Positions 6,646 through 43,703 are shown, counted from the first letter of the stretch. The stretch is 64,000 nt of DNA from Candidatus Aminicenantes bacterium UBA647 (GCA_002299555.1 DBOL01000107.1:1310-65309), one strand, 5' to 3'. Program-made: numbers and translations. Notes: a model not told the origin generated them from the letters alone.

Positions 6646-6876
6646 TCAGGCTAGTCTCACTTCATTGATCTCCGGAATCTCAGCTCTTATTGTTTGCTCA
6701 ACATATCCTTTGATAGTCATAGTGCTCATGGGGCAGCCGTTGCATGCACCGGTCAAATTAACAAGGACAACGCCTTCATCTTCAAGGACATCAACAAGTT
6801 CGATCCCACCACCATCAGCCTGAAGAGCCGGCCTTACCTTATCTATAATATTGTCTACTTTTTCTTTAAGTGTCAT
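6646..6876 (-). CDS. NifU-like (Nfu-type) Fe-S cluster assembly domain protein
   Basis: 76 aa. VRPALQADGGGIELVDV...VLVNLTGACNGCPMSTMTIKGYVEQ is the NifU C-terminal domain with its CxxC pair. Confidence 0.85.
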   Translation of the reverse strand: MTLKEKVDNIIDKVRPALQADGGGIELVDVLEDEGVVLVNLTGACNGCPMSTMTIKGYVEQTIRAEIPEINEVRLA

Positions 6877-6890
6877 TTCATTCTCCTGAA

Positions 6891-7796: not shown

Positions 7797-8001
7797 TTTT
7801 CCGCCTCAATCCATTTTAGTACAGATTCCCATATGCGTCAAACTTCCTCCTTAAGGAAAAGAAATGCAGGTTATGATAGATGTCAGGCAAAATTACCCCG
7901 ATTTTCAATTTCATTAAGCCGACTATTGCATACAAAGATGAAGTAAAATAGAATTAATGTTTTCCAGGACCAGGGATGTTATTTTTTTGGGAGGAATTTT
8001 A

Positions 8002-10683
8002 ATGAAACGAATAACTATCATTACAACAATGCTGTTGATCTTGTCAATTTGCCCGATCATGGAGTTTCCCGGGGAAAGCCCATCAAACAGAGAAGAACTT
8101 TTTAAAGAGTTCACATTCAGGAATCTCGGCCCTTTTCGTGCCGGATCATGGATATCGGATATTGCAGTGCCGATAAATCCCAAAAAAGAGGACAGGTTTA
8201 CCTTCTATGTTGCTGCCAGGAATGGCGGTGTTTGGAAAACAGTGAATAAAGGTACAACCTTCTTCCCTATCTTCGATAACTATGGAGTTAATTCGATCGG
8301 CTCTGTCGAAGTGGCGCCCTCGAACAGCAGTATAGTCTGGGTTGGAACCGGTGATGATTCCAATGCAAGATCTGCATATTATGGTAATGGTATATATAAA
8401 TCCATCGATGGGGGTATAACCTTTACCAATATGGGTTTGAAAGAATCACATCACATCGGGAAAATAATCATACACCCGGAAGATCCGGATATCGTCTACG
8501 TTGCTGTTATGGGTCATCTTTTCTCATTTAATGAAGAGAGAGGCGTATTTAAGACGATCGACGGCGGGAAGTCCTGGACAAAGATCCTGTATATAGATGA
8601 CAGAACAGGTGCCGCTGATATTTGTATGAACTCAAAAGATCCCGACACTCTGTTTGCTGCATCTTACAACATGCAAAGGTACCCCTGGCATTTCGAAGCA
8701 GGTGGAGAAAACAGCAGAATATACAGAACCGGAGATGGCGGAAAGAACTGGAAAAAACTTGAGTCAGGCCTCCCCGTTGGAAAACTTGGACGGATAGGTA
8801 TCGATATCTGCCGTGCTGTCCCTGACACAATTTATGCAGTTATTCAGAATTTGAATCCAAAGCCGGATTTGAATAAAAATTCAAAAAAAAAGTTTGATGC
8901 TTTTACCGATCACTCATATGATGAACTCATCGGCGGAGAGGTTTACCGTTCGGATGACAATGGGGATAATTGGAGAAAAGTAAGCCTCCCGGGCATAGAT
9001 GTGAGCGGAAAAGCTGCTTACTCTTTTAATGAGATCACAGTCGATCCTGAAGATCCGGAAAAGGTCTATATAATAGCCGTACAGATGCTCTATTCCAAAG
9101 ATGGTGGAAAGAACTGGCCGGGATGGAAAAACTGGAGGGAGAGGAAACTCTTCAGAAAAAATTTCGGGGATGTGAGGACATTCTGGATAGATCCTGAAGA
9201 TCCGGATCATATGATGCTGGGAAGTGATGGAGGCTTATATTCTTCATGGGACGGAGGGAAAACAACTTTCCATTATTACAACATACCGCTGGGTGAGATC
9301 TACGATGTCGAGACTGATAATAGCGAGCCTTATAATATTTATGCAGGCCTTCAGGACCATGAGACATGGAAAAGTCCTGTAAATGGATGGTCAGGATCTA
9401 TAGGATTGGAAGACTGGGTTATCACAGGAATGTGGGACGGGATGTATACTTCAGTAGATCCGGAAGATAACAGATGGCTCTATTTTACAACCCAGTTCGG
9501 CAAGCATCACAGAGTAGACCAGCTGAGAGGTGAAAGATCTGAGATCACCCCGGTGAATATAAAGGAAAGGCCTCCATACAGATACACATGGACAACGCCT
9601 GTCGTCCTGTCTCCTCACGACAGCAAAGTAGTTTATACGGGAGGGCAGATGCTCCTTCGATCAATGAACAGAGGACAAACATGGGAAGAGATAAGTCCGG
9701 ATCTTACGGATAACGATCCGGTTAAGATCGCAGGAAAAGGGCATATCATGTATTGCACGATCACGACAATATCCGAGTCCCCTTTGAAGAGAGGAATTAT
9801 CTGGGTTGGAACAGATGACGGGAAAGTACAAATGACATCAAGCAACGGCCTGATCTGGAAAGACAGAACACCTGAACTTAAAAAGGCCGGAGCACCCGGA
9901 AATAAATGGGTGAGCAGGATCTTTTCATCAAATCACGATCCATATTCTTCATATGTAACTTTTTCAGGGTATAGAGAAGATGATTTTAAAACATATATCT
10001 ACAAAACAGATAATCTTGGCAAATCCTGGACAGATATAAGTGGAGATATGCCCGACTCTCCGGTTTCTTTAGTTATTGAGGACAAAGATAATGGATCTTT
10101 ATTATTTGCAGGAACTGATTCCGGGATCTATTTCTCATTTAATGGAGGGATGAACTGGACAAAACTAAGGAACAATATGCCTCCTGTACCGGTAAGGGAC
10201 ATCCTTATCCAGGAACCGACCGGAGATCTTGTGGCCGGAACTTACGGAAGAGGAGTATGGATAACAAACATAGCACCGTTAAAAGAACTATCCGGAAAGA
10301 TCTTAAAAAAAGATATTCATCTTTTCAAAATAAGATCGAGGCCGGTGATGATATCTTCACAGAGAGCCTGGTGGGGGAACTATCACATGACGGGCGATGC
10401 CCATCTCAGAACAGAAAATGAGAAACCGGGATTAAACATCTATTATTACCTTGGAAGAAATTATTTTTACCCCCCGGAAATGATCGTTTCTGACCCGGAT
10501 GGAAGAGAATTACAAAAGATCAAACTAAAAACTTTAAAAGGGATATATAAACTCAATTGGAACTCCCCGGACAAAAAGCCAGGGAAATTCAATTTCACAA
10601 TTACTTCAGGTAAGGAAAAAACAACAAGATCAGGGGTTCTTAAGCCTTCAATTCTATGGCCTGTTAAAGAGATCCACAAGTAG
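8002..10683 (+). CDS. Exported BNR/Asp-box (sortilin/VPS10-like) beta-propeller repeat protein
   Basis: ORF 7957..10683; likely start is ATG 8002 (MKRITIITTMLLILSICP signal peptide) after GGGAGGA. Repeated Asp-box motifs: SIDGGITF, TIDGGKSW, TGDGGKNW, SDDNGDNW, SKDGGKNW, SWDGGKT, SMNRGQTW, TDNLGKSW, SFNGGMNW. Confidence 0.8.
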   Translation: MKRITIITTMLLILSICPIMEFPGESPSNREELFKEFTFRNLGPFRAGSWISDIAVPINPKKEDRFTFYVAARNGGVWKTVNKGTTFFPIFDNYGVNSIGSVEVAPSNSSIVWVGTGDDSNARSAYYGNGIYKSIDGGITFTNMGLKESHHIGKIIIHPEDPDIVYVAVMGHLFSFNEERGVFKTIDGGKSWTKILYIDDRTGAADICMNSKDPDTLFAASYNMQRYPWHFEAGGENSRIYRTGDGGKNWKKLESGLPVGKLGRIGIDICRAVPDTIYAVIQNLNPKPDLNKNSKKKFDAFTDHSYDELIGGEVYRSDDNGDNWRKVSLPGIDVSGKAAYSFNEITVDPEDPEKVYIIAVQMLYSKDGGKNWPGWKNWRERKLFRKNFGDVRTFWIDPEDPDHMMLGSDGGLYSSWDGGKTTFHYYNIPLGEIYDVETDNSEPYNIYAGLQDHETWKSPVNGWSGSIGLEDWVITGMWDGMYTSVDPEDNRWLYFTTQFGKHHRVDQLRGERSEITPVNIKERPPYRYTWTTPVVLSPHDSKVVYTGGQMLLRSMNRGQTWEEISPDLTDNDPVKIAGKGHIMYCTITTISESPLKRGIIWVGTDDGKVQMTSSNGLIWKDRTPELKKAGAPGNKWVSRIFSSNHDPYSSYVTFSGYREDDFKTYIYKTDNLGKSWTDISGDMPDSPVSLVIEDKDNGSLLFAGTDSGIYFSFNGGMNWTKLRNNMPPVPVRDILIQEPTGDLVAGTYGRGVWITNIAPLKELSGKILKKDIHLFKIRSRPVMISSQRAWWGNYHMTGDAHLRTENEKPGLNIYYYLGRNYFYPPEMIVSDPDGRELQKIKLKTLKGIYKLNWNSPDKKPGKFNFTITSGKEKTTRSGVLKPSILWPVKEIHK

Positions 10684-10826
10684 AACTAATACTATTTACT
10701 GAAAAACCGGGGCTATATCCTCCGTATATTTTAATTGTCAAAGATTAAGATAAAATTTTTATTCTTAATACATTCCATTGAAACCGGAATTTCTATTTGG
10801 TATTTTTTAAAGTTAACGGAGGAACA

Positions 10827-13800
10827 ATGAAAATATCCAGATCGTATATCGTATTTTTAAGCATGGTTATTGCAATATTTATTTCCATCCCATCATTCGG
10901 AAGTGAAACTTCCGAACCCGGGCACATCTTCAGATATCCGGACATCCATAAAGATACAATTGTTTTTACTTATGGAGGAGATATCTGGAAGGGAAAAACT
11001 ACCGGTGGCCCTGCAGAAAGGCTGACAATTAATGATGGAGAGGAGAAGTCCCCGAAAATATCAAATGATGGAAAAATGATCGCTTTCTCCGGTCAATACG
11101 ACGGAAATACTGATATTTATACGATGAACATGTTTGGAGGAGAGATAACGAGGGTAACTTATCATCCGGGTTCTGATTCAGTTAAGGGATGGGATCCGGT
11201 AAAGAATAAGATCATTTTTTCATCCACTCGTAATAGCTATGGAAGATATACTAATCTTTATCTGATAAATCCGGATGGAACTGACCTTGAAAAATTGATA
11301 ATGCATGAAGCTGCATGGGGAAGCTTTTCCTCCGACGGATCTAAAATAGCTTACAATAAGGTCGCAAGAGAACATAGAACCTGGAAGCGATATAAAGGCG
11401 GACTGGCTCAGGATATTTTTATATATGATCTTAGAGCAAATGTCGAAAAGAGGATAACAGAGTTCAGAGGAACAGACAGATCTCCGATCTGGATGGGAAA
11501 CGAGATATATTTCACTTCAGATAGAAGCGGCACTCTTAATCTTTATTCGTACAATACTGAAACCGGAAAAATAATCCGGAAAACTTCACATAAAAAATTT
11601 GATGTCAGAAGAGCCTCCTCCGATCAGGGGCAGATCATCTATGAATATGGGGGAACCCTTAAAATATATGATACGGTTAGAAACATCTCTTTCGATCCCG
11701 GTATAAAAATCCTTGCAGATGCACCTGAATCAAGACCGTACATCAAGAATGTAAAAAACTTCATAACCGGTTTTGATTGCTCACCTTCGGGAAAACGTGC
11801 TCTCATTACAGCAAGAGGTGAAATATTCACAGTGCCTGAGAAAGAGGGACCTACAAGAAATATCTCTTCCGATTGCGGATCAAATGATAAAGACGGGATC
11901 TGGTCACCCGACGGGAAGAAGATAGCATTTATTTCTGACAGGTCCGGGGAACACGAGTTGTATCTTGTTGATTCGCTGGGAAACAACAAACCTACAAAAC
12001 TCACTGAGAATAAGGATGGATACAGGCAGAACCTGTTGTGGTCACCTGATGGAAAGATGCTCATATATGCAGATCAGACACTCGCATTTTACATTATTGA
12101 TATATCTACAAAAAAAGTAACAAAAGTAGACAAAGCAAATTATGAGAATGTTGATATAGATCTAAAAAACAAACCGATCTATGATTATTCATGGTCTCCT
12201 GACAGCAGGTTCATTGCCTATTCTAAGATGGATTCTGATCTTGTCACAAAGATATATATCTACTCCCTTAAAGATGATATGATCAAATGTGTTTCAAACG
12301 GCACTTTCAATGATTTTCAACCGGTTTTCTCAAAAGATGGTAAGCATTTGATCTTTGTCTCCCACAGATATTTCAAACCTGTTTACGGAGATTTTGACTG
12401 GGAGATGGTCTACAAAAACTCATCGGAACTATATTCTGTCTCACTCACCAAAAATGCCCCCCCTCTCCTCCCTTTCATAAGTGATGAGTCCGGCGAAACA
12501 AAACAAGAAAAAAAAACCACATCAAAAATAATTACAAAAATAGACTTTGACAGGATTTCAGAAAGGATTGAGAAATTACCTCTTCCCCCATCCAATTACA
12601 GACATCTTGCTGTAAACTCTGATAATATTTTTTACTTAAATTCTGATAAGGGTGACTATAACAGATTCCAGTACAGGAGCCTTGGCCCCAGGGACCTTTG
12701 TGCATTCTCCCTGAAAACAAGAAAAGAGAAGATCCTTATTAAAGGAGTTAGTGGCTATAAATTATCTTCAAAAGGGACTCATCTCATTTTTAAAAAAGGG
12801 AGATCTATAGGGATAATCAAAGCATCGAAACCGGAAAAAGAAAAAGTGCTTAACCTAAGCAAACTTAAGATGAAGATCGATCCGAAAAGGGAGTGGAAGC
12901 AGTTATACAACGAAACATGGAGACTTGAAAGAGATTTCTACTATGACCCGGCAATGAAAGGAAATGACTGGAAAGAGATAGGAAATAAATATGGAGAACT
13001 CCTCAAATCTGCTTCATACAGGGGAGATGTCGGCTACCTTATCGGTGAAATGATTGGGGAACTTAACACTTCCCACACCTATGTGTTCGGTGGCGATAAA
13101 AAAAGGAGAGCTGACAGAACAGGGACCGGGATGCTCGGTGTTGACTGGGATATAGATGAGAAGAACGGTTTATACAGATTCGGGAAGATCTACAAAACTC
13201 CTGACTGGACAAGAAATGTTATACCTCCTTTAACAGGTCCCGGGAAAAATGTTGAAGAGGGAGATTACCTTCTTAAAATTAACGGGAAAGAGGTCAGTGC
13301 CAAACAGAACATCTATATGTATTTCGAGGATAAAGCTAATGAAGTGATCACGATAACAACAAACTCAAAACCGATATTAACAGGATCAAAACAGATAAAA
13401 GTAAAAACTATTAACAGTGAAAATGTCCTTCGCTATCAGGATTGGGTTGAACAAAACAGAAAAAAAGTTGAAAAAGCGTCCGGCGGAAAAATAGGGTATA
13501 TACATTTCCCTGACACTTTTAACGGTACCGCCAGGGAATTCCCGAAATATTTTCTTTCACAGCTTACGAAAAAGGGATTGGTCATAGATGGTAGATATAA
13601 TGGAGGAGGGCTTGACCCGAGTATCTTCCTCAGAAGACTTAACAGAAAGATCCATTCTTATTGGACAAGAAGATATTCTGCAGATCAGATCAGCCCTCCG
13701 AATGCAATAAATGCACACATGGTTCTTCTTACGAACAAACAGGCCGGGTCGGGTGGAGATGAGCTTCCATTTGTATTCCAAACTCTGAAGATGGGGCCGG

Positions 13801-14090
13801 TGATCGGAACCAGAACCTGGGGGGGACTGGTAGGAGTATCCATGTTCATGAAATTAATGGATGGTGGGGGGATTACGGCACCTGACTACAGAATTTATGA
13901 TACTAAAGGAAGATGGATAATTGAGAATTATGGCGTTGATCCGGATATCCCGATAGATAACGATGCACTAAAAATGTCCAGAGGGATCGATTCCCAACTG
14001 GAAACCGGGATCGAATATATTTTAAAGAAACTGAAGAAAGAACCGATCGAAAAGCCTGATCACAAAGCATTTATTATTGAAAAAAGATAA
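10827..14090 (+). CDS. Tricorn-protease-like S41 peptidase (beta-propellers + PDZ + S41 catalytic domain), exported
   Basis: ORF 10797..14090; likely start is ATG 10827 after AACGGAGGA. N-terminus is MKISRSYIVFLSMVIAIF followed by FRYPDIHKDTIVFTYGGDIWK, the typical tricorn N-terminus. TolB-like WSPDG repeats are present. The C-terminal S41 block is IDGRYNGGG...TNKQAGSGGDELP. Confidence 0.85.
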   Translation: MKISRSYIVFLSMVIAIFISIPSFGSETSEPGHIFRYPDIHKDTIVFTYGGDIWKGKTTGGPAERLTINDGEEKSPKISNDGKMIAFSGQYDGNTDIYTMNMFGGEITRVTYHPGSDSVKGWDPVKNKIIFSSTRNSYGRYTNLYLINPDGTDLEKLIMHEAAWGSFSSDGSKIAYNKVAREHRTWKRYKGGLAQDIFIYDLRANVEKRITEFRGTDRSPIWMGNEIYFTSDRSGTLNLYSYNTETGKIIRKTSHKKFDVRRASSDQGQIIYEYGGTLKIYDTVRNISFDPGIKILADAPESRPYIKNVKNFITGFDCSPSGKRALITARGEIFTVPEKEGPTRNISSDCGSNDKDGIWSPDGKKIAFISDRSGEHELYLVDSLGNNKPTKLTENKDGYRQNLLWSPDGKMLIYADQTLAFYIIDISTKKVTKVDKANYENVDIDLKNKPIYDYSWSPDSRFIAYSKMDSDLVTKIYIYSLKDDMIKCVSNGTFNDFQPVFSKDGKHLIFVSHRYFKPVYGDFDWEMVYKNSSELYSVSLTKNAPPLLPFISDESGETKQEKKTTSKIITKIDFDRISERIEKLPLPPSNYRHLAVNSDNIFYLNSDKGDYNRFQYRSLGPRDLCAFSLKTRKEKILIKGVSGYKLSSKGTHLIFKKGRSIGIIKASKPEKEKVLNLSKLKMKIDPKREWKQLYNETWRLERDFYYDPAMKGNDWKEIGNKYGELLKSASYRGDVGYLIGEMIGELNTSHTYVFGGDKKRRADRTGTGMLGVDWDIDEKNGLYRFGKIYKTPDWTRNVIPPLTGPGKNVEEGDYLLKINGKEVSAKQNIYMYFEDKANEVITITTNSKPILTGSKQIKVKTINSENVLRYQDWVEQNRKKVEKASGGKIGYIHFPDTFNGTAREFPKYFLSQLTKKGLVIDGRYNGGGLDPSIFLRRLNRKIHSYWTRRYSADQISPPNAINAHMVLLTNKQAGSGGDELPFVFQTLKMGPVIGTRTWGGLVGVSMFMKLMDGGGITAPDYRIYDTKGRWIIENYGVDPDIPIDNDALKMSRGIDSQLETGIEYILKKLKKEPIEKPDHKAFIIEKR

Positions 14091-18789: not shown

Positions 18790-20007
18790 TCAATATGTTT
18801 TCGGAGCAATGTATTCTTTCCCGGGATCAAGGATCTGTCCATATCCTGAATTCCAGAGCTCTTCAAATAAGGAATCAAGTATTGATGCAACCTTCTTAAG
18901 TTTTATTACAACTTCCACATTCCTTGAATCATAAAAATACCCTTTCCCCCAATTGCTGGTCCCTACCCACGAAATATGATCATCCACTCTCATTACTTTG
19001 GAATGGATCACCCTTGAATAAGGTATGAACCCCTTACTGTATTCAGGTATCGTAAAAACCTTTACAACTACCCCCCTGATCTTTGCAAGAGCTTTTATCG
19101 ATCCAATACCGGGTTTTTTCAGGTTCCAGTCAGCTACTGCAAACCTTATCTGAACTCCCCGGCCGGCAGCTTTTGCAATTACCTCATAAAGTTCTGTAAA
19201 TTCTTTTTTACTTTTATATATCTGCGTTTTATAATTCAATAATTGTATTGTAATACTGCTTTTTGCCCCATTGATTAATTTTTTCAACATTTTCAAAGAG
19301 CTTCCTACACCCGGAGGGTTGAATCTCTCAGGACTTGCTGTAAGGATCAAATTATCATCTCTGCTTTTCTCCGGATCTCCACCTTGAAATGAGTATGCTG
19401 TTTTATCACCACTATTATACTTCCAATCTGCTTCAAAGATCCTCTTCAGGTCAGAAACAATACCGGGTTCACTGATCCTCAGGCCCGTCTCATGAATATG
19501 TTTTAATGCACGCCAATCAAAATTCTGGCTTCCAATGAAAACCTCTCTATCATCTACAATAAAATATTTAGCATGAATTATTCCTCCATTCAGTCCCCCC
19601 CAATCAAAAATGGTAATAGAGATATTTGGTATTGTTTCAAGTCTTGTTTTAAGGGGTTCGGAATTATTGAGCATTTTTTTGTCAATAAGAAACCTGACAG
19701 CAACACCTCTGGCAGAAGCCTTTTTCAATGACTCGATCACAAGCTCAAGAGGCTCATTTTTTTCTGTAACAAGATAGAATTCGGCGAAATCGATAGTTCT
19801 TTCTGCACTATTGATCATTTCCACCCAGACTTCAGAAGCTCTCCTGGTACCCTTACCGGTCAAAGAGGTCTCGACAGGGATCGAAGTTACAACCTCTACA
19901 TTCCGAACAACCTCTGAAGCTGAGATATGCAGGCTCAAGGAATTGGAAAAGAATATAAGAACAATTATTATTAATACTTTTTTTGTAATCAGATCAGTTC
20001 TGCTCAT
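18790..20007 (-). CDS. Exported phospholipase D-family protein (two HKD motifs)
   Basis: 405 aa with a signal-like N-terminus. HKD motifs: HAKYFIVDDREVFIGSQNFDWRAL and HSKVMRVDDHISWVGTSNWGKGYF. Confidence 0.8.
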   Translation of the reverse strand: MSRTDLITKKVLIIIVLIFFSNSLSLHISASEVVRNVEVVTSIPVETSLTGKGTRRASEVWVEMINSAERTIDFAEFYLVTEKNEPLELVIESLKKASARGVAVRFLIDKKMLNNSEPLKTRLETIPNISITIFDWGGLNGGIIHAKYFIVDDREVFIGSQNFDWRALKHIHETGLRISEPGIVSDLKRIFEADWKYNSGDKTAYSFQGGDPEKSRDDNLILTASPERFNPPGVGSSLKMLKKLINGAKSSITIQLLNYKTQIYKSKKEFTELYEVIAKAAGRGVQIRFAVADWNLKKPGIGSIKALAKIRGVVVKVFTIPEYSKGFIPYSRVIHSKVMRVDDHISWVGTSNWGKGYFYDSRNVEVVIKLKKVASILDSLFEELWNSGYGQILDPGKEYIAPKTY

Positions 20008-27248: not shown

Positions 27249-27352
27249 TGGATTTTAGAAGATCAGAATAAATTATTCAATTGATAAGTGCAAGACTGTT
27301 TTCCCTTGACATATAGCGGATAAAAAAATATATTAGTCGATTGAGGATTAAT

Positions 27353-29323
27353 ATGTATAAAAGGATCAACGGAAAAAAAAATACTGGCATTACAAAAAAA
27401 AAAATCGGCTTTGTTACTCTCAAGGAAGCAACACCTGATATCTATGAAGATCTAGGTTTTAAATGTGGACTGGAAGTTCATCAGCAGCTTTTAACCGAGC
27501 AAAAATTGTTCTGCAGATGCCCAGCAGGGAAATATCAGAAAGGTGATGATTTTCAAGCAGAGATCGTTCGTCATATGAGACCTACCCTCAGCGAGCTGGG
27601 AGAATACGATGGCACGGCATTGATGGAATTCAAAACCAGAAAAAATATTACTTACAGACTGAAAAATGAAAATGCCTGTACATATGAGATAGATGATACG
27701 CCCCCATTTCCTCTGAATAGGGAAGCATTGGGGATATCCATTGAGATCGCCCTTCTATTAAAAACCTCTATAGTAGGAGAATTACACATCACAAGAAAGC
27801 AATATCTTGACGGCAGCATCCCTACAGGTTTTCAGAGAACAGCGATCGTGGGGATCGAAGGTCTGATCCCAATAAGAAATAAAAAGATCCGGATAATTCA
27901 GATGAGCATTGAAGAAGATTCCTGCAGGGAGATATCGGACATCGGGCATGAAAGAATATACTCAACAGACAGACTTGGGGTCCCGTTAATAGAAACTGTA
28001 ACATATCCTGACATGAAAACACCTGCCGAGGCCGCAGAAGCCGGGCAATACATCCGTTTCCTGGCCAGGAGTACCGGGAAAGTGAGAACCGGGATAGGAG
28101 CCGGGAGGGAAGATGTCAATGTAAGTATCAAAGGCGGAACAAGGGTTGAGATCAAAGGAGTATCCAGAATTAAGTGGATACCTCCATTAACCCATGTGGA
28201 AGCTTTCAGACAGAAAGCACTTCTTGAAATAAAAAAGATATTAGAGGAGAGAACGAAAAATGTACCTGAATGGGAAATAAGGTCAACACCTGTTGATAAC
28301 TCCATTCTGATCAAAGCAGGATTGCCATTAAAGAAGGAGTACAAAGCATCAGGGATAAGATTGCCCGGATTCAGAGCCATCCTCTCCTTTTTTACACAAC
28401 CTGAAAAAACATTTGCAGATGAGTTGAGTGAAAGGGTAAAAGTAATTGCCTGCATTGAGAAACCAAATATTGTTCATGATGAAGATTCTTCTTCAAAAAT
28501 ACCGGATGAGGTTTTTAGCGATATTTACACAAAAACCGGTGGAGATGAGAAAGATGCATTTTTAGTTGTTTTCGGCCCAGCCGGAGATATTGCAATGGCA
28601 GAGGAGACGATCCGGGAAAGGTGCCTCCTTGCATTTCAAGGAGTCCCGAATGAAACCAGGAAAGCTGTTAACAGAGAAGGTACAACTATATTTGAACGGG
28701 TTCTCCCCGGACCGAACAGGATGTATCCCGATACTGATTCTGCCCCGATCGCAATAGATGACGGCTATATAAGTAAATTGGGGAGTGACCTCCCGTCAGA
28801 TATTTATGATAGAGAAAAAATCATGAAAAACTGGAATATCCCCGAAGATACGTTCCCCTACATCCATGTAAGAAATATTTTCCCGGTCATTAAAAAAATA
28901 TCCGAGGAACTTTCATATTCCCCTTCATTTGTAGGAACAATCGTTGGACACCGCATAAAGAATGTCGACGGGAAAAATGCAATATCCCCCGGTTTTGATC
29001 ATTCAAGATTATTTGATATTTTTGAATTTTGTGAAAAAAAGAAATTAGACAGCGAACTGGTTAAGCTTATGATACCTGTTCTCCTGATCCATCCTAATAT
29101 GGACCCCGAGTCGATCTTATCTACCATCAAATTCAAAAAAAGGGATAAAAAAGAGATAATTTCAAATATCCCTCTCCTCGATAAACAATTCAATACTATT
29201 TCTAAAAAAAATGATCCCGGTGCAAAAAAGAGATGGATAATGGGACAATTGAGGCCGATAGCCGTTGGGAACATCTCCTTAAGAGAGCTGAGCAATACAA
29301 TAAACGGAGGCGGCAATGGATGA
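27353..29323 (+). CDS. gatE: Glutamyl-tRNA(Gln) amidotransferase subunit E (archaeal-type GatE)
   Basis: ORF from TTG 27341; ATG at 27353. GFKCGLEVHQQL..KLFCRCP, RHMRPTLSELGEYD, DDTPPFPLNREAL, ITRKQYLDGSIPTGFQRTAIV, DRLGVPLIETVTYPD and REDVNVSIKGGTRVEIKGV align block for block with archaeal GatE as I recall it. The ~656 aa length fits GatE, not the ~480-aa GatB. Confidence 0.85.
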   Translation: MYKRINGKKNTGITKKKIGFVTLKEATPDIYEDLGFKCGLEVHQQLLTEQKLFCRCPAGKYQKGDDFQAEIVRHMRPTLSELGEYDGTALMEFKTRKNITYRLKNENACTYEIDDTPPFPLNREALGISIEIALLLKTSIVGELHITRKQYLDGSIPTGFQRTAIVGIEGLIPIRNKKIRIIQMSIEEDSCREISDIGHERIYSTDRLGVPLIETVTYPDMKTPAEAAEAGQYIRFLARSTGKVRTGIGAGREDVNVSIKGGTRVEIKGVSRIKWIPPLTHVEAFRQKALLEIKKILEERTKNVPEWEIRSTPVDNSILIKAGLPLKKEYKASGIRLPGFRAILSFFTQPEKTFADELSERVKVIACIEKPNIVHDEDSSSKIPDEVFSDIYTKTGGDEKDAFLVVFGPAGDIAMAEETIRERCLLAFQGVPNETRKAVNREGTTIFERVLPGPNRMYPDTDSAPIAIDDGYISKLGSDLPSDIYDREKIMKNWNIPEDTFPYIHVRNIFPVIKKISEELSYSPSFVGTIVGHRIKNVDGKNAISPGFDHSRLFDIFEFCEKKKLDSELVKLMIPVLLIHPNMDPESILSTIKFKKRDKKEIISNIPLLDKQFNTISKKNDPGAKKRWIMGQLRPIAVGNISLRELSNTINGGGNG

Positions 29324-30698
29324 TCTGTTCAAAGGATATAAAGGCGAAACATTAAAGTTATTGAAGAAATTTAATGTCAGGGTATGGAGTGAAGTAGATA
29401 TAAAAAGTTCCAGAGGAGAATTCTCAGGGATAATATTGCCCAGATCAGAAAATGATGATGAAACTCATCTGGTAATAAAACTTGTCACCGGATATAACAT
29501 AGGACTTGAAACCGGAACAATAAAAAATATTATAGAAAAAGGATTCAAAGAGGCAAATTATAAAATTCCCGAGAAAGAATTCCCTTATTCAGAGGGAAAA
29601 CCAAACCTGAAACTTTTCGGTACCGGAGGAACAATAGCCTCACGTCTCGACTATAGAACCGGTGCAGTTATCCCTGCATTTTCTCCCGGTGAGTTGTATG
29701 GAGCAGTTCCGGAACTTGCCGATATATGTAATTTATCCACAGAAAAGCTATTTGCGGTTTTCAGTGAGAATATGGGCCCGGAACAATATATAGTCCTTGC
29801 AAAAGCTATTGGGGAACAGATCAGAAATGGAATAGACGGAATAATAATCGGACATGGAACAGATACAATGCATCATACGGCATCAGCTCTCTCCTTCATG
29901 GTCCAGAACTCCCCTGTGCCGATCGTAATGGTAGGCTCACAAAGATCTTCGGACAGACCTTCCTCAGATGCGGCACTTAACCTTATCCATGCGGCTACAA
30001 CAGCAGCAATTTCTGATATTGCAGAGGTTTCTGTATGCATGTTCGGCCCAACTTCAGATGATTACGGACTTATACACAGGGGAACAAGGGTGAGGAAAAT
30101 GCACTCATCCTATCGGTCCGCTTTCAGGACGATCGGAGATGTCCCTATCGCAACAGTGGTAAGAGACAAAGTTACTAAGATCAGGAACGACTACAACAAA
30201 AGAAGGAATGACAAAGATGTAAATATTCTCCCGTATTTTGAGGAAAAAATAGCATTAATATACTATTATCCGAATATGCAGCCGGATATGATCGATTCTC
30301 TGATAGAGAAGGGATATAAAGGGATCGTAATTGCAGGGACAGGACTTGGGCATGTGAACAAGCCTCTCTATCCTGCACTGGAAAGAGCCCAGAAAGCAGG
30401 CGTTGCTGTTTATATGACCGTTCAGACATTGTGGGGATTTGTACATATGTTCGTTTATGATACAGGAAGAGACATGATGAGCAAAGGTGTTATCCCTTCA
30501 GAGAATATGCTGCCTGAAGTCGCATATATAAAACTGGGATGGGCTTTGGGGCAGACAGATGATCTTGAAAAAGTGAAAGATATCATGCTCACACCCATTG
30601 CAGGCGAGATCACCAGCAGAGAACCTTACAACGGATATCTTATATATCAGGGCGGGATCCCTGAAGTCGAAGAACTGCTGAAAAAATACCATAAATAA
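29316..30698 (+). CDS. gatD: Glutamyl-tRNA(Gln) amidotransferase subunit D (archaeal-type GatD, asparaginase fold)
   Basis: 460 aa. GatD-specific N-terminal domain: GEFSGIILPRSENDDETHLVIKLVTGYNIG. L-asparaginase core: LFGTGGTIASRLDYRTGAV, IIGHGTDTMHHTA. The start overlaps the gatE stop by 8 nt (ATGGATGA) and GGAGG lies upstream. Confidence 0.85.
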   Translation: MDDLFKGYKGETLKLLKKFNVRVWSEVDIKSSRGEFSGIILPRSENDDETHLVIKLVTGYNIGLETGTIKNIIEKGFKEANYKIPEKEFPYSEGKPNLKLFGTGGTIASRLDYRTGAVIPAFSPGELYGAVPELADICNLSTEKLFAVFSENMGPEQYIVLAKAIGEQIRNGIDGIIIGHGTDTMHHTASALSFMVQNSPVPIVMVGSQRSSDRPSSDAALNLIHAATTAAISDIAEVSVCMFGPTSDDYGLIHRGTRVRKMHSSYRSAFRTIGDVPIATVVRDKVTKIRNDYNKRRNDKDVNILPYFEEKIALIYYYPNMQPDMIDSLIEKGYKGIVIAGTGLGHVNKPLYPALERAQKAGVAVYMTVQTLWGFVHMFVYDTGRDMMSKGVIPSENMLPEVAYIKLGWALGQTDDLEKVKDIMLTPIAGEITSREPYNGYLIYQGGIPEVEELLKKYHK

Positions 30699-30699
30699 T

Positions 30700-32190
30700 T
30701 TGAAACAGAAAAAGAAGATCTTTTCATCCCCTTATCTTTGGGCCTTCACAACATATTTCCAGGAGGGATTCCCTTATTCTATAATAAGAACAGTATCGGG
30801 GGTATTTTTCAGAGATATGAAAGTTTCTCTCGAATCTATCGGACTGACTCCCCTGTTCGGACTACCATGGATATTAAAATTTCTATGGAGTCCGCAGGTA
30901 GACAATTATAGTTCTAAAAAAAGATGGATGGTGATCTCTCAGGGGCTGATCGTAATAATGCTCCTGCTTGCTGCAATATTTGCACCTCTTGAAAACAACA
31001 TTTCTCTTATCGCCGGACTTTTCTTCCTCGGAGCCTTTGTAGCTGCAACCAATGATATTGCTATAGACGGCTACTATATGGAAGCGCTTGATGAAGAGGG
31101 ACAGTCAAAATTTGTCGGATACAGAGTGATGGCTTACAGGATCGCCTGGATGACAGGACCAGGAGTGATCGCAACTATAGGAACCACTATAAGTTGGTTC
31201 CTTGCATTTCTTACAGGTGCCGCTATCTATCTGGTTTTTACTGTTTATCATCTGTTTTTCCTTGCCGAGGCCGGCAAGAAGGGTGAAAGTTTTATATTCA
31301 TGTTCAAGCGGATGATAAAGGTAAGAACATTTGTTTTTCTGATATCAACAATTTCAATTATAGTCGGGATCAGACTTTTTTTCAGTTCGCCATTCTATTC
31401 AGAACTGAAAGAAAGTATTCCGATACTTAAGAAATTTTACTTCTCACACTGGATAGCATTAATATTACTTTTTGCTCTCATCCTTCTGGCCATTTTCAGA
31501 AAAAGTTTAAAATCCAAACTTATAGGGAACAGAGATTCCAACTATGGCAAAGCATTCTACTATTTCATGGAGAGAGAAAAAATTTCATTAATACTTGCCT
31601 TCCTGATCCTGCTGAGGGCGGGTGAATGGGCTGTTACAGTAATGGTTGCTCCATTAATAGTTGATATAGGTATCAAGTCACACTATGGGTGGATAAGCGG
31701 AGGGATCGGACTCCCGTCATCTATTGTCGGAGCTATGCTTGGTGGATGGATGATATCACGCTATTCACTGAAAAGAGTGATCTGGCCATTCATATTACTT
31801 CAGAATCTTACAAACCTTGTATATATGACTCTGGCGATCCACCTGAGTTCTTTCATCAGGATAAACACAGGTGCAGATACTGTCGTCCCTATCGGTACCA
31901 TGAATCTCATATTTACTGCTGCAGTCCACTCTTTTGATCAGTTTGCCAGCGGATTAGGGACAGCAGTGCTCATGACCTACCTTATGAGGATATGCCATGC
32001 TGAATTCAAGGCTACCCACTATGCCATTGGAACCGGTTTGATGAACCTCAGCGGCCTTTTTGCAGGTATCTCAAGCGGTTTCATTGCAGGATGGCTCGGA
32101 TATGCCTGGCTCTTCGGGATAAGCTTTGCATTCTCAATTCCCGCAATGGTCATGATTCCTTTTCTCCCCTATCTTACCCGAAGAAAATAA
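30700..32190 (+). CDS. AmpG-family MFS transporter (muropeptide permease-like)
   Basis: 496 aa (TTG start), polytopic. GLPWILKFLWSPQVD and ATNDIAIDGYY match the AmpG FKFLWSPLMD / ASQDIVFDAW blocks. Confidence 0.75.
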   Translation: MKQKKKIFSSPYLWAFTTYFQEGFPYSIIRTVSGVFFRDMKVSLESIGLTPLFGLPWILKFLWSPQVDNYSSKKRWMVISQGLIVIMLLLAAIFAPLENNISLIAGLFFLGAFVAATNDIAIDGYYMEALDEEGQSKFVGYRVMAYRIAWMTGPGVIATIGTTISWFLAFLTGAAIYLVFTVYHLFFLAEAGKKGESFIFMFKRMIKVRTFVFLISTISIIVGIRLFFSSPFYSELKESIPILKKFYFSHWIALILLFALILLAIFRKSLKSKLIGNRDSNYGKAFYYFMEREKISLILAFLILLRAGEWAVTVMVAPLIVDIGIKSHYGWISGGIGLPSSIVGAMLGGWMISRYSLKRVIWPFILLQNLTNLVYMTLAIHLSSFIRINTGADTVVPIGTMNLIFTAAVHSFDQFASGLGTAVLMTYLMRICHAEFKATHYAIGTGLMNLSGLFAGISSGFIAGWLGYAWLFGISFAFSIPAMVMIPFLPYLTRRK

Positions 32191-40068: not shown

Positions 40069-41082
<1,014 letters not shown>

Positions 41083-41083
41083 A

Positions 41084-42274
41084 ATGTATAAAAAATTTAT
41101 TGAAAACACAGATATCAGAGATAAATTCGTTTTTATCAGAAATGATTTCAATGTGCCTCTCAGTAGTGATGGCGACATAACGGATGAGACGAGAATAACC
41201 GAATCCCTGAGAACTATCAATTATGCCCTTGATAAGAATGCAAAAGTGGTATGTGCCTCCCATCTCGGAAGGCCCAATGGGCAAAAAGATGAAAAATTAA
41301 GTTTAAAACAAGTTGCCGAAAGATTATCAAGCCTGATCGGGAAAAAAGTGATCTTCAATGGGGAGTCTACAGGCCCTTCGATAGATAAGATAAAAAATGA
41401 GATGAAGGCAGGTGATATACTGCTTCTCGAGAACCTCCGATTCAACCCCGGTGAAAAAGCCAATAGTGAGGATCTATCCGCAGAACTGGCCAGGAACATC
41501 GAAGTTTATGTTAATGATGCTTTCGGAACATCCCACCGTGCACACGCTTCAATAGTGGGAATTACAAAACATGTCCCCATATCTGTAATGGGTTACCTTC
41601 TTAAAAAAGAGAAAGAGTTTCTGGAAATGGCACTCAACAACCCTCCTGAAAAATTCACCATAATTCTTGGTGGCACAAAGGTGTCAGAAAAGATCGGAGT
41701 GATTGAGAACCTGCTCGGGAAGGCAAAAACAATTATTATCGGCGGAGCAATGGCCTACACTTTCCTTAAAGCAAAAGGTGAGGAGGTCGGAGCGTCCATG
41801 GTAGAAAATGAATTTCTTGAATTCTGCAAAAACATAATGGAAACAGCAAAGGATAAAGGTGTGAAGATCCTCTTACCGGTAGACCATATTGCTGCTAACA
41901 AGATCGAGCGTAATATTACTATCAGAATGATAAAACCGGGAGAAGGGATTCCCCCGGATATGTTAGGGCTGGATCTGGGATTCAATACGGTCAGCATATT
42001 CAGAAAAGAGATATTGGAATCCCAAATGATATTCTGGAACGGACCAATGGGTGTTTTTGAAGTTGAAGATTTTTCAGGAGGAACCATGGCAGTCGCAGAA
42101 GCGGTGGCCGAATCACCTGCGATTTCTATTGCCGGTGGTGGAGATACAATAGCAGCTATCAAACTGGCCGGAGTAAAAGGAAATATATCTCATATTTCAA
42201 CCGGTGGAGGTGCTTCTCTTGAACTTATGTCCGGGATCTCTCTTCCAGGAATTGAAAGCCTTACGGAGGATTAA
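41084..42274 (+). CDS. pgk: Phosphoglycerate kinase
   Basis: ORF from 41018; ATG 41084 (MYKKFIENTDIRDKFVFIRNDFNVPL) lies 1 nt after the gap stop. Blocks SHLGRPNG, NDAFGTSHRAHAS and STGGGASLE. Confidence 0.95.
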   Translation: MYKKFIENTDIRDKFVFIRNDFNVPLSSDGDITDETRITESLRTINYALDKNAKVVCASHLGRPNGQKDEKLSLKQVAERLSSLIGKKVIFNGESTGPSIDKIKNEMKAGDILLLENLRFNPGEKANSEDLSAELARNIEVYVNDAFGTSHRAHASIVGITKHVPISVMGYLLKKEKEFLEMALNNPPEKFTIILGGTKVSEKIGVIENLLGKAKTIIIGGAMAYTFLKAKGEEVGASMVENEFLEFCKNIMETAKDKGVKILLPVDHIAANKIERNITIRMIKPGEGIPPDMLGLDLGFNTVSIFRKEILESQMIFWNGPMGVFEVEDFSGGTMAVAEAVAESPAISIAGGGDTIAAIKLAGVKGNISHISTGGGASLELMSGISLPGIESLTED

Positions 42275-43041
42275 TGAAAGATCTGATAATTGCAGCAAAC
42301 TGGAAAATGAACAAAACCGTCCCTCAGAGTATTTCATTCATATCGGATCTTGACATCAGAATAAGTCAATGGAAATTAAATCCAAAACTGAACAAATTGG
42401 AAATACTTATATTCCCGCCGGCTATATCTCTATATCCAATGAATGGAAGATCAGAGTTTATTTCACTTGGATGTCAAAATATTTATTTTGAGGAGAGTGG
42501 CGCTTATACCGGAGAGATAGCGGTTGATATGATCAGAGAATATTCGAAATATGCTCTTATCGGCCATTCTGAGAGGAGAGAGGTTTTCTCTGAAACAGAT
42601 GAAGAGATTAATAAAAAAATTAAAACTTCACTAAGTGCAGGCCTAACTCCACTTTTATGCGTCGGGGAAACACTGGATGAAAGAGAAGCAGGAAATACTT
42701 TTACAAAGATCAATGCCCAATTGAAAAATGATCTCTCCGGACTTTCTTCAGAAGAGATAGAAAAGATTGTTTTTGCATACGAACCTGTGTGGGCTATAGG
42801 AACAGGAAAAACTGCAACTCCTGAACAAGCTCAGGAAGTTCATGAGTTTATCACTAATGAAATAAACAAAATATCAGGTAAAGAAAACAAGAGGATGATC
42901 TTGTATGGAGGATCTGTTAAACCTGAAAACAGTAAAGAACTCCTTACAAAAAAGGATATAAATGGTGCTCTTATCGGTGGAGCATCCTTGAATGTTGATT
43001 CATTTTTTGCTATAATCGAAAAATCCCTTGAACTTGTTTGA
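42274..43041 (+). CDS. tpiA: Triose-phosphate isomerase
   Basis: 255 aa. AANWKMN, IGHSERR, YEPVWAIGTG and GGASL. The ATG overlaps the pgk TAA by 1 nt. Confidence 0.95.
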   Translation: MKDLIIAANWKMNKTVPQSISFISDLDIRISQWKLNPKLNKLEILIFPPAISLYPMNGRSEFISLGCQNIYFEESGAYTGEIAVDMIREYSKYALIGHSERREVFSETDEEINKKIKTSLSAGLTPLLCVGETLDEREAGNTFTKINAQLKNDLSGLSSEEIEKIVFAYEPVWAIGTGKTATPEQAQEVHEFITNEINKISGKENKRMILYGGSVKPENSKELLTKKDINGALIGGASLNVDSFFAIIEKSLELV

Positions 43042-43450: not shown

Positions 43451-43534
43451 GCCGAGGTGGTGGAACTGGTAGACACGCAAGCTTGAGGTGCTTGTGGCTG
43501 TAAGGCTGTAGGGGTTCGAGTCCCCTCCTCGGCA
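43451..43534 (+). tRNA. tRNA-Leu (anticodon GAG)
   Basis: Manual fold. Acceptor GCCGAGG/CCTCGGC with discriminator A. Anticodon stem CAAGC/GCTTG with loop TTGAGGT. Long variable arm (class II). T-arm AGGGG-TTCGAGT-CCCCT. No encoded CCA. Confidence 0.9.
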
Positions 43535-43546
43535 TTCCCAGCAACT

Positions 43547-43634
43547 GGAGAGGTGCGAGAGTGGTTGAATCGGGTTGCCTGCTAAGCAACTGTTCTGGTT
43601 AACGGAACCGTGGGTTCGAATCCCACCCTCTCCG
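43547..43634 (+). tRNA. tRNA-Ser (anticodon GCU)
   Basis: Manual fold. Acceptor GGAGAGG/CCTCTCC with discriminator G. Anticodon stem GTTGC/GCAAC with loop CTGCTAA. Long variable arm. T-arm GTGGG-TTCGAAT-CCCAC. No encoded CCA. Confidence 0.9.
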
Positions 43635-43703
43635 TTTCACAAAAAAATAAACTTCAGTTTGTTTTTTTGGGGAACTTATCTGTGACATTCGAAATAATAC
43701 TCT

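Follow-up and report, generated by a model that had tools for sequence, protein, structure and literature searches.

Papers as recent as 2022 describe GatDE as an enzyme of archaea only (PMC8762117, PMC9499178). The stretch of DNA that we analyzed (the window, 64 kb) comes from a metagenome-assembled genome of the Aminicenantes/Acidobacteriota, a diderm bacterium, and it carries gatE followed directly by gatD. What is this gene pair, what would it do in a bacterium, and how did it come to be there? The relevant features are as follows.

27306..27334, plus strand: sigma-70-type promoter-like site, TTGACA-17 nt-TATATT (11/12 matches), separated by 19 nt from the ATG of gatE
27343..27347, plus strand: Shine-Dalgarno-like GAGGA of gatE, read in the sequence, 5 nt before the ATG at 27353
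27353..29323, plus strand: gatE, tRNA-binding kinase/amidotransferase subunit; ORF of 656 aa from ATG, alternative TTG start at 27341
27353..27436, plus strand: N-terminal extension of GatE, about 27 residues, Lys-rich, predicted to be helical, restricted to the "core" clade that includes the window
28265..28642, plus strand: GatE-specific AspRS-like insertion domain, about residues 305-430, delimited by Pfam spread, AF2, and Foldseek
28760..29305, plus strand: C-terminal helical and putatively YqeY-like tail of GatE, about residues 470-651
29306..29310, plus strand: GGAGG ribosome-binding site of gatD, inside the 3' end of gatE, read in the sequence
29316..30698, plus strand: gatD, glutaminase/asparaginase-type ammonia-donor subunit; ORF of 460 aa
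29382..29522, plus strand: GatD-specific N-terminal domain, residues 23-69 (PF18195 GatD_N, 42.5 bits versus a cut-off of 25.7)
29607..30587, plus strand: asparaginase-fold catalytic core of GatD (Pfam Asparaginase and Asparaginase_C)
30700..32190, plus strand: AmpG-family MFS transporter (TIGR00901, 213.8 bits, below the cut-off of 350; Pfam MFS_1)

The preliminary description of this DNA had reported a gatE ORF of about 656 aa and a gatD ORF that overlaps it by 8 nt and is preceded by GGAGG, and we recovered both at exactly the positions it gave. Public gene calls also start gatE at the ATG at 27353, and the public protein is 100% identical over 656 aa. The gatD ATG overlaps the gatE stop codon, with the 8-nt overlap reading ATGGATGA in the sequence. 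Upstream, TTGACA-17-TATATT was the best-scoring site of the region, but sites of this kind were no more numerous than in shuffled sequence; it may serve as the promoter of gatE. Using NCBIfam and Pfam, we identified lpxB, L-2-hydroxyglutarate oxidase, and DUF4197 genes upstream and the AmpG-family MFS gene downstream, and bacterial markers in the window or nearby included ClpB, LpxB, and a sigma-54 activator, as well as Ddl, MltG, and LptD. The flanks had been described in the same way for lpxB, DUF4197, and the transporter. The spacing of 1 nt between gatD and the transporter gene is uncertain, however, because the latter may start at 30817, as in the JGI gene call, and not at the TTG at 30700. 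A terminator scan of the region found no plus-strand terminator-like site after gatD, and the transporter gene may be cotranscribed with gatD. It lies outside the conserved unit and was not conserved next to the pair in other genomes.

We found that the first protein passed the GatE family cut-off of TIGR00134 (379.9 bits versus 319.55) and fell marginally under that of NF003107 (447.7 bits versus 456). All GatB models scored 128 bits or less against cut-offs of at least 315 (the best, 127.9 versus 338). The solved archaeal GatE chains matched the window protein at 273 bits (2d6f_C) and 249 bits (1zq1_C), compared to about 60 bits for GatB, and identity was 30 to 34% to the solved chains by structural alignment and 32 to 40% to archaeal cluster representatives. 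Universal positions were taken to be those with at least 95% conservation across 85 archaeal GatE sequences and the same residue in 3 GatB sequences; all 28 are kept. Among the positions at least 95% conserved in the 85 archaeal sequences, 61 of 68 are kept. The AF2 model (pLDDT, 81.7) gave 2d6f_D and 1zq1_C as top Foldseek matches (E of about 1e-42; TM, 0.77 to 0.78); matches to GatB were weaker than those to the GatE chains by about 20 orders of magnitude.

The domain structure of the protein is also that of GatE. The 277 profile positions of the Pfam GatB_N match are spread across residues 41 to 477, which implies that the match is interrupted by about 160 inserted aa. In the AF2 model, this region is a well-folded alpha/beta module, and Foldseek returned weak AspRS matches for it (e.g., 1c0a_A, E = 5e-3). 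The tail region is all helical (pLDDT of about 85 to 90), and the NCBIfam GatE models align up to profile positions 609/622 and 615/630. With the family cut-off passed, the catalytic positions kept, and a fold that matches solved archaeal GatE including the insertion domain, the earlier assignment of this ORF to GatE holds. Some features set the window protein and its relatives apart from archaeal GatE. The archaeal H-x-D-E motif of the insertion domain reads H-D-E-D at residues 375 to 378, and the bacterial-type clade differs from archaeal GatE at this motif and at 10 discriminating positions. In addition, 38 residues precede the first catalytic motif in 26/26 core-clade sequences, compared to median lengths of 11 residues for archaeal GatE and 9 for GatB; residues 1 to 40 were modeled with a pLDDT of 84 to 95.

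The second protein scored well above the GatD cut-offs of NF003217 (514.9 bits versus 310) and TIGR02153 (512.7 bits versus 324), as did its N-terminal domain above that of GatD_N, in agreement with the earlier reading of a GatD with a specific N-terminal domain and an asparaginase core. It matched the solved GatD chains 1zq1_A and 2d6f_A at 405 and 391 bits. The core carries the motifs GTGGTIAS (102 to 109), HGTDTM (180 to 185), and RKMH (260 to 263), and T106, T182, D183, and K261 are invariant in 82/82 sequences (77 bacterial type and 5 archaeal references). According to the literature, these residues provide the catalytic Thr nucleophile and the Thr-Lys-Asp triad. The GatD core also matches type I L-asparaginases (AnsA-like; TIGR00519, 389 bits), with the Thr and Thr-Asp/Lys residues kept. 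Unlike those enzymes, GatD has its own N-terminal domain and is always paired with gatE; its identity to free-standing asparaginases is only about 30%, and it formed a separate clade in 193/200 replicates.

The best sequence and fold matches of the pair are the archaeal GatDE enzymes of Methanothermobacter thermautotrophicus (2D6F) and Pyrococcus abyssi (1ZQ1). These have the same two subunits, with all catalytic positions conserved, and the same architecture: GatD_N plus an asparaginase core in one subunit and a cradle core, AspRS-like insertion, and helical, putatively YqeY-like tail in the other. Unlike them, the window pair lies in a diderm bacterium, with a sigma-70-type promoter-like site and Shine-Dalgarno sites. 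Bacterial GatCAB would share with it the overall reaction and the place in the indirect pathway. GatB and GatE are paralogues with a common catalytic cradle, including the 28 invariant positions; however, the GatE insertion is absent from GatB, an asparaginase-fold GatD replaces the amidase-fold GatA, and there is no GatC.

By analogy with the characterized archaeal enzyme, the predicted activity is the amidation of Glu-tRNA(Gln). In such a pathway, which runs where GlnRS is missing, tRNA(Gln) would be charged with glutamate by a non-discriminating GluRS. [quoted passage not shown] GatD would hydrolyze glutamine or asparagine at its Thr/Thr-Lys-Asp asparaginase site, and the ammonia would pass through an intramolecular tunnel to GatE, where the intermediate would be amidated to Gln-tRNA(Gln). 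Both genes needed for the putative alpha2-beta2 complex are present together. We found no gatCAB, glnS, or gltX in the 64-kb window, in about 20 kb flanking it, or in related loci totaling 1.08 Mb, and no tRNA(Gln) gene in the window or the related loci examined, results that are uninformative for the genome as a whole.

Archaeal GatDE recognizes archaeal tRNA(Gln) by its A1-U72 pair; in bacterial tRNA(Gln), the presumed substrate here, this pair is normally U1-A72. Therefore, either substrate recognition or the tRNA must differ. This raises the alternative that bacterial-type GatDE acts on Asp-tRNA(Asn) also or instead, as the sole amidotransferase, having displaced GatCAB. In bacteria, U1-A72 marks both tRNA(Gln) and tRNA(Asn), and GatCAB normally serves both. 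Archaeal GatDE tells Gln from Asn by the first base pair together with positions 19 and 20 of the D-loop, and an enzyme retuned to bacterial acceptor stems could lose this discrimination. The clade-specific changes also cluster in the tRNA-facing additions of GatE, namely, the insertion motif and the N-terminal extension. However, the insertion domain is kept, and modeling in the literature predicts a clash between this domain and class II AspRS within a transamidosome. We consider a role with Asp-tRNA(Asn) unlikely and favor Glu-tRNA(Gln) as the substrate.

How common is such a pair in bacteria? The window pair is one ordinary representative of a large, deep, long-established bacterial-type GatDE lineage, whose members come from Zixibacteria, Bacteroidales, Ignavibacteria, Cloacimonadota, Calditrichota, Acidobacteriota, WOR-3, Spirochaetes, and delta-proteobacteria. 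All of the best 80 genome loci were labeled as bacterial, complete chromosomes included. An archaeal signature protein is one confined to archaeal genomes, and GatDE is not so confined. The preliminary description had named a common occurrence of GatDE in this bacterial clade as a point against its own reading, and we found that GatDE is indeed already common there. In the searchable literature, we found no paper describing bacterial GatDE; databases do annotate members. The gatE-gatD pair is the only conserved synteny across the clade, and in essentially every related locus with both genes on the contig, they are adjacent and on the same strand. Together with the 8-nt overlap, this bears out the proposed tight coupling of the two genes. 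Deep branches also lie in bacterial contexts, one with a sigma-54 activator, HPr kinase, and PTS genes and another with MurC, MurD, Lnt, MraZ, and RsmH.

We built trees of both subunits by neighbor joining only, with distant outgroups (GatB for GatE and asparaginases for GatD). The bacterial-type GatE sequences (group I) were separated from canonical archaeal GatE with a bootstrap of 100/100, and group I was monophyletic in 55/60 and 38/40 replicates of the GatB-rooted trees. The archaeal sample was biased toward the closest matches of the query; with it, the sister of group I belonged to the Asgard set in 32/40 replicates. In the asparaginase-rooted GatD tree, which held five reference archaea only, bacteria and Asgard grouped in 185/200 and 188/200 replicates. 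We verified that the Asgard contigs are archaeal; on two of them, gatE and gatD follow each other in the same order as in the window, an arrangement seen in Thor- and Hodarchaeales. Outgroup rooting of both subunits thus locates the bacterial-type clade within the diversity of archaea, beside Asgard sequences.

An alternative is that the clade is a vertically inherited bacterial branch that was lost from most bacteria and owes nothing to archaeal transfer. Consistently with this, the clade is deep, with identity to the window GatE dropping to 43 to 51% and distances about as large as those among the sampled archaea. It also spans many phyla and is separated with full support from canonical archaeal GatE, and a LUCA scenario is present in the literature. 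In contrast, the rooting beside Asgard argues against this alternative. Of the replicates of the GatB-rooted GatE trees, only 1/60 and 1/40 recovered canonical archaea as monophyletic, and a clan of Asgard and Euryarchaeota appeared in 0/200 replicates for GatD. Moreover, the clade occurs patchily, mainly in anaerobic lineages of sediments and digesters. GatD in the core clade is 71 to 80% identical across phyla, compared to 62% for a pair of euryarchaeal orders aligned with them, and this lower divergence suggests later spread. Taken together, these data make a purely vertical bacterial origin improbable.

The preliminary description had offered two origins, transfer between domains into this lineage or an unrecognized bacterial GatDE clade. 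We found that the second is the better description. Transfer does not apply to this lineage in particular, but an interdomain origin does apply to the clade, because the clade nests within archaeal GatDE. Most likely, the gatE-gatD operon was an ancient acquisition from an archaeal relative of the present-day Asgard lineages, with both the direction and the source of the transfer suggested by the rooted trees. Vertical inheritance and exchange among anaerobic bacterial phyla probably followed. Some Thermoplasmatota-labeled sequences nest within the bacterial-type clade; therefore, a single archaea-to-bacteria transfer is too simple.

The strict pairing of gatE and gatD across the clade also bears on function, since it fits a tRNA-dependent enzyme. 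A role independent of tRNA, such as asparaginase- or glutaminase-coupled amidation of another substrate, is conceivable in that the asparaginase core of GatD is complete and two Pfam models went undetected by sequence in the window GatE. These are GAD (PF02938) for the insertion, which was detected in a Heimdall homologue, and GatB_Yqey for the tail that contacts the tRNA D-loop, a model that was undetected at an E of ≤1e-3 and was detected in some clade members. However, the full GatE architecture is kept, tail helices and insertion domain included, as are all the kinase/amidotransferase core residues common to GatB. We regard a tRNA-independent role as very unlikely.

Finally, we considered whether the pair entered this Aminicenantes genome recently, as the earlier picture of an archaeal gene pair embedded in a bacterial locus implied. 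The flanking genes vary between genomes, and the pair resembles a compact cassette that is complete in itself, as a recent acquisition might. In contrast, the composition of both genes is fully native. The codon-usage correlations were 0.92 for gatE and 0.93 for gatD (window median, 0.89), and GC3 was within 1 SD, so that the comparison with the neighboring genes came out in favor of native status. In at least four relatives, GatE identity (78, 68, 65, and 65%) declines alongside ClpB identity (84, 80, 75, and 75%), with both genes on contigs of identical length (1,132,594, 54,372, 145,875, and 48,496 bp). Family profiles revealed no mobile-element genes beside the pair. These findings contradict transfer into this particular lineage and leave a recent, lineage-specific acquisition highly improbable. 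An assembly or binning artefact joining an archaeal fragment to bacterial DNA, as might be suspected of a textbook-archaeal enzyme in a metagenome-assembled genome, is effectively refuted by the same gene order in NCBI contig DAOUTM010000003.1 (138,858 bp) and in JGI contigs of an independent assembly, by GC and codon usage that are continuous across both junctions, by the bacterial-type promoter-like and Shine-Dalgarno sites of gatE, and by homologous pairs in complete bacteria-labeled chromosomes (OY760907.1, Zixibacteria, 3.84 Mb; OY762964.1, Cloacimonadales, 3.10 Mb; OY782882.1, Bacteroidales, 4.86 Mb) and in dozens of other bacteria-labeled contigs.

We think it likely that the locus is a native, expressed gatE-gatD operon encoding a catalytically intact, GatDE-type heterodimeric amidotransferase, an ordinary member of the bacterial-type clade with an ancient Asgard-related origin. 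Precedents for supposedly domain-specific core machinery in bacterial metagenome lineages concern different genes. CPR bacteria have been described with archaeal-type TyrRS and TrpRS and the tRNA identities to match (PMC5370408), and archaeal-type lipid genes have been described in FCB-group bacteria (PMC6431249), which include several of the same phyla as the GatDE clade. In this case, GatDE, a textbook "archaea-only" enzyme, is present as an intact operon in an Aminicenantes-related bacterium.

We identified two open reading frames of the window as gatE and gatD. The preliminary description had placed an overlapping pair here, preceded at gatD by a GGAGG, and all three features are present:

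27353 to 29323, plus strand: gatE, an open reading frame of 656 amino acids read from ATG, with an in-frame TTG at 27341
29306 to 29310, plus strand: GGAGG upstream of gatD, read in the sequence
29316 to 30698, plus strand: gatD, an open reading frame of 460 amino acids

The gatD ATG overlaps the gatE stop codon in ATGGATGA. The ATG start of gatE is also the start used by the public gene call P0001. It is preceded by GAGGA at a distance of 5 nt and by a TTGACA-17-TATATT site (11 of 12 matches) that ends 19 nt upstream of the ATG. No terminator-like site was found on the plus strand after gatD.

We compared both products with family models. TIGR00134 scored 379.9 bits on the window GatE (cut-off, 319.55) and NF003107 scored 447.7 bits, slightly under its cut-off of 456; no GatB model exceeded 128 bits, and all GatB cut-offs are 315 or higher. 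Two GatD equivalog models gave 515 and 513 bits on the window GatD (cut-offs, 310 and 324), in which Pfam recognizes GatD_N and both asparaginase domains. In a structure-database search, the top matches of GatD were solved archaeal GatD chains (405 and 391 bits), with which its GTGGTIAS, HGTDTM, and RKMH motifs align. A Thr nucleophile and a Thr-Lys-Asp triad have been described for GatD, and the corresponding residues, T106, T182, D183, and K261, do not vary among 77 bacterial-type and 5 archaeal GatD sequences. Against the window GatE, the archaeal GatE chains of known structure scored 273 and 249 bits, and GatB scored about 60 bits. When aligned with 85 archaeal GatE and 3 GatB sequences, it keeps 28 of the 28 positions common to GatE and GatB and 61 of the 68 positions with a conservation of at least 95% among the archaeal GatE sequences.

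An AlphaFold2 model of the window GatE, built from 29 clade members (pLDDT, 81.7), returned GatE chains 2d6f_D and 1zq1_C as its top Foldseek matches (E about 1e-42; target TM, 0.78), and GatB chains were about 20 orders of magnitude weaker. Weak matches to AspRS fit the presence of the AspRS-like insertion domain, which sets GatE apart from GatB; the Pfam GAD and YqeY models had no sequence match in the window GatE. Family scores, domain architecture, and trees that include GatB and asparaginases rule out a GatB paralogue or an ordinary asparaginase and uphold the original identification. Homology and the intact chemistry make transamidation of Glu-tRNA(Gln) to Gln-tRNA(Gln) the most probable role for the window GatDE. 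Dual Gln/Asn specificity of the bacterial-type enzyme is a live alternative.

The flanks had been described as bacterial, and we found the same: lpxB, an L-2-hydroxyglutarate oxidase, and a DUF4197 protein lie upstream of the pair, and an AmpG-family MFS transporter lies downstream. Elsewhere the window encodes ClpB, a sigma-54 activator, NadA, and an RND efflux system, and Ddl, MltG/YceG, RuvX, and an LptD-like protein are encoded just outside its ends. Several further features of the window and contig are recorded here in their own right:

7957 to 10683: one of two large Sortilin/Vps10-BNR repeat proteins of the contig, the other being at 6866 to 9967 of locus L097, just past the right window end
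10797 to 14090: a protein of about 1090 residues carrying Tricorn protease domains, likewise of a family originally described in archaea; in locus L096 the same gene matches Pfam Tricorn_N, Tricorn_C1, PDZ_Tricorn, and Peptidase_S41
18790 to 20007: a two-domain phospholipase-D-family protein (DISARM DrmC model, 90 bits, below the cut-off of 133), near which no further defence genes were noticed
40081 to 41082: gap, immediately upstream of pgk-tpiA
41018 to 43041: pgk and tpiA, which abut, 42274 being both the pgk end and the tpiA start; both match a bifunctional PGK/TIM fusion model
43451 to 43635: tandem tRNA-Leu(GAG) and tRNA-Ser(GCT); no other RNA genes were found in the window
50207 to 51622: an open reading frame matching the reductive dehalogenase subfamily model TIGR02486 (179.6 bits; cut-off, 160.35), with a GC content of 0.448, the highest of the tabulated window genes

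GC content is flat at about 0.40 over gatE-gatD, and the GC3 of both genes lies within 1 SD. Their synonymous codon usage resembles that of their neighbors, with correlations to the rest of the window of r = 0.92 (gatE) and 0.93 (gatD) and a median of 0.89 over 35 genes. We found an identical gene order on NCBI contig DAOUTM010000003.1 (GCA_030626715.1; 138,858 bp) and on JGI contigs of metagenome 3300031920. An assembly chimera is ruled out, because the same context recurs in independent assemblies and complete chromosomes and composition is continuous over the junctions. The best named relatives of the window ClpB are from Aminicenantes and Acidobacteriota. Four ClpB relatives and GatE relatives lie on contigs of identical size (1,132,594, 54,372, 145,875, and 48,496 bp), across which identity to the window is 84, 80, 75, and 75% for ClpB and 78, 68, 65, and 65% for GatE. 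A parallel drop of this kind is what genes inherited vertically within the lineage show. Together with codon usage, it rules out recent lineage-specific horizontal transfer and with it one of the two alternatives in the preliminary description, import of the pair into this particular lineage.

We then asked how widely the pair occurs. A word-indexed protein search with the window GatE matched at least 8000 proteins; the best 120 clusters among the matches listed are 57 to 100% identical to it, and their named members are bacterial MAGs of Acidobacteriota/Aminicenantes, Calditrichota, Zixibacteria, and Bacteroidales. A GatD scan of one genome per GTDB species confirmed at least 584 related stretches, a number that may include archaeal GatD or asparaginases and so is not a count of bacterial GatDE. 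The best 80 of these loci are all labelled bacteria (71 to 80% identity), with labels including Zixibacteria, Ignavibacteria, Bacteroidales, Cloacimonadota, Aminicenantes, Holophagae, Neomarinimicrobiota, and Desulfatiglandaceae. They include the complete chromosome records OY760907.1, OY762964.1, and OY782882.1, and gatE lies directly 5' of gatD on the same strand. The pair has no conserved neighbor: each neighboring gene is common to at most 8 of 81 loci, tRNA(Gln), gltX, glnA, and gatC were not found as conserved neighbors in these 81 loci, and no tRNA(Gln) gene lay near the pair in the related loci. When 1.08 Mb of related loci was searched with GatA and GatB by tblastn, only gatE itself matched, and neither gatCAB nor glnS occurs in the annotated window or about 10 kb past each end (about 20 kb); this absence says nothing either way, since well under 1% of each genome was covered.

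Among 1.84 billion cluster representatives, which we searched exhaustively, 585 clusters were GatE-like at an E of ≤1e-30. They form three tiers: one cluster at 54% identity, about 30 at 43 to 51% (440 to 540 bits), and the remainder at 32 to 40% (about 300 bits), where the solved archaeal enzymes also score. In a neighbor-joining tree, the window's clade and the intermediate tier (group I, bacterial-type GatE) separated from canonical archaeal GatE (group II) with a bootstrap of 100/100. All group II names are archaeal (Heimdall-, Hod-, Thor-, and Odinarchaeota, Diapherotrites, and unclassified "archaeon"). The neighbors on the Thorarchaeota contig are unambiguously archaeal (RNase P Rpp14 and p30, ribosomal protein L15e, and PolD DP2), the Heimdall contig encodes a TFIIB-type zinc ribbon, and gene context on the Hodarchaeales contig is not diagnostic of domain. 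Deep group I branches carry the bacterial names Deltaproteobacteria, CSSED10-310, Thermoanaerobaculia, WOR-3, Spirochaetes, and Zixibacteria. The gene contexts of deep members are bacterial as well: P0123 adjoins a sigma-54 activator, HPr kinase, and PTS genes, and P0275 adjoins MurC, MurD, Lnt, MraZ, and RsmH.

We rooted GatE trees on three GatB sequences from plasmid-collection records. Group I formed a single clade in 55/60 replicates, and a larger taxon set gave the same result in 38/40; for canonical archaeal GatE, monophyly was recovered in just 1/60 and 1/40. Sister to group I is a small set of archaeal sequences, all of them Asgard where named, and in 32/40 replicates the sister group lay within this Asgard set. 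For GatD we built an independent tree with three asparaginases as the outgroup. It joined bacteria and Asgard in 185/200 replicates (188/200 after taxa were added), and an Asgard-plus-Euryarchaeota clan appeared in 0/200. The gatE-gatD order is also found in two of three Asgard contigs. All trees are neighbor joining with distant outgroups; the archaeal GatE sample is the 150 best-scoring representatives, and the GatD tree has only five reference archaea. The haloarchaeal reference GatE of Natrinema was left out because it is frameshifted in record CP031304.1. In that record (Natrinema thermotolerans, 987-kb replicon; locus L089, 3769 to 5850), the frameshifted gatE is unannotated, and gatD is not adjacent to it. 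The simplest reading of these sequence comparisons is that bacterial-type GatDE would have originated by an ancient transfer of the gatE-gatD operon from an Asgard-related archaeon.

A search from the deep group I member P0289 returned sequences with six Thermoplasmata or Thermoplasmatota labels, one of them on the 5.16-Mb complete record CP070751.1. The loci fetched for these sequences and for the P0289 branch are as follows:

L099 (ENA ERZ24794647 NODE_384, 153.7 kb), 9001 to 11061: gatE of the deep group I branch P0289/P0162, with gatD at 11058 to 12440
L100 (CP070751.1, labelled Thermoplasmata archaeon), 6732 to 11938: gatD and gatE with glnA (glutamine synthetase) between them
L101, 8394 to 11926: Thermoplasmata/Thermoplasmatota-labelled bacterial-type GatE and GatD, with gatD divergent from gatE

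In the Thermoplasmatota-labelled loci, gatD is divergent from gatE. Their GatE sequences fall inside group I, and their GatD partners are 74 to 79% identical to bacterial GatD. These GatD sequences nest among bacteria: the combined clade appeared in 200/200 replicates and bacteria alone were monophyletic in only 22/200, with bacterial-context sequences on the deepest branches of the combined clade. Secondary transfer from bacteria to archaea, a donor lineage, and mislabelling are all possibilities. TatC scored slightly better on the archaeal model and PFOR is of the single-chain type, and neighboring genes gave no decision on the domain of these contigs. At the P0289 locus, gatE and gatD neighbor archease, a PAS-DUF835 protein, ATP-PEPCK, and two sets of four-subunit 2-oxoacid:ferredoxin oxidoreductases; no gene there is diagnostic, and the archease and DUF835 protein suggest an archaeon.

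Group I differs from archaeal GatE at ten discriminating alignment columns, and the archaeal insertion-domain motif H-x-D-E (residues 375 to 378 of the window GatE) is not conserved in it. Unlike archaeal GatE and GatB, GatE of the core clade, the window's subclade of group I, has a fixed N-terminal extension of about 27 residues (window 27353 to 27436) that is Lys rich and confidently predicted as helical. The first catalytic motif is preceded by 38 residues in the core clade; the medians for archaeal GatE and for GatB are 11 and 9. The extension may, for example, contact tRNA. In archaea, GatDE recognizes tRNA(Gln) by A1-U72 and the D-loop; the bacterial enzyme GatCAB recognizes U1-A72. Because these recognition elements differ, we infer that the group I and core-clade differences are candidate adaptations to bacterial tRNA.

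The window locus is a bacterial member of a known enzyme kind and an ordinary member of the bacterial-type lineage; the interest is in the lineage, not the locus. Bacterial proteins are already named GatE and GatD by the NCBI and JGI pipelines and in that sense are known to databases. We found no description of bacterial GatDE in the searchable literature; subscription-only papers were outside its scope, and an earlier description is possible. GatDE is routinely cited as exclusive to Archaea (PMC8762117, PMC9499178) and as having coevolved with the unusual archaeal tRNA(Gln), which has been offered as the reason that archaea never acquired GlnRS. The rationale of the archaeal two-enzyme arrangement (GatDE and GatCAB) has been called an open question. 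A large, old bacterial GatDE lineage contradicts the claim of exclusivity.

A broader proposal, which we put forward tentatively and consider rather doubtful as a whole, is that GatDE is no archaeal signature: the bacterial-type enzyme would be a mainstream route to Gln-tRNA(Gln), and perhaps to Asn-tRNA(Asn), in many anaerobic bacterial lineages, retuned to bacterial tRNA identity and displacing GatCAB or GlnRS there. If this is true, the Asgard-adjacent position and the nested Thermoplasmatota-labelled sequences would mean repeated, two-way domain crossing by a core translation enzyme. The bacterial GatDE lineage is a natural experiment that sets tRNA(Gln) with A1-U72 against GatE retuned to U1-A72, and GatCAB kept against GatCAB replaced, in a lineage placed close to Asgard. 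In practice, these bacterial MAGs would be mis-scored wherever gatD and gatE count as archaeal markers in domain-level marker sets or contamination filters.
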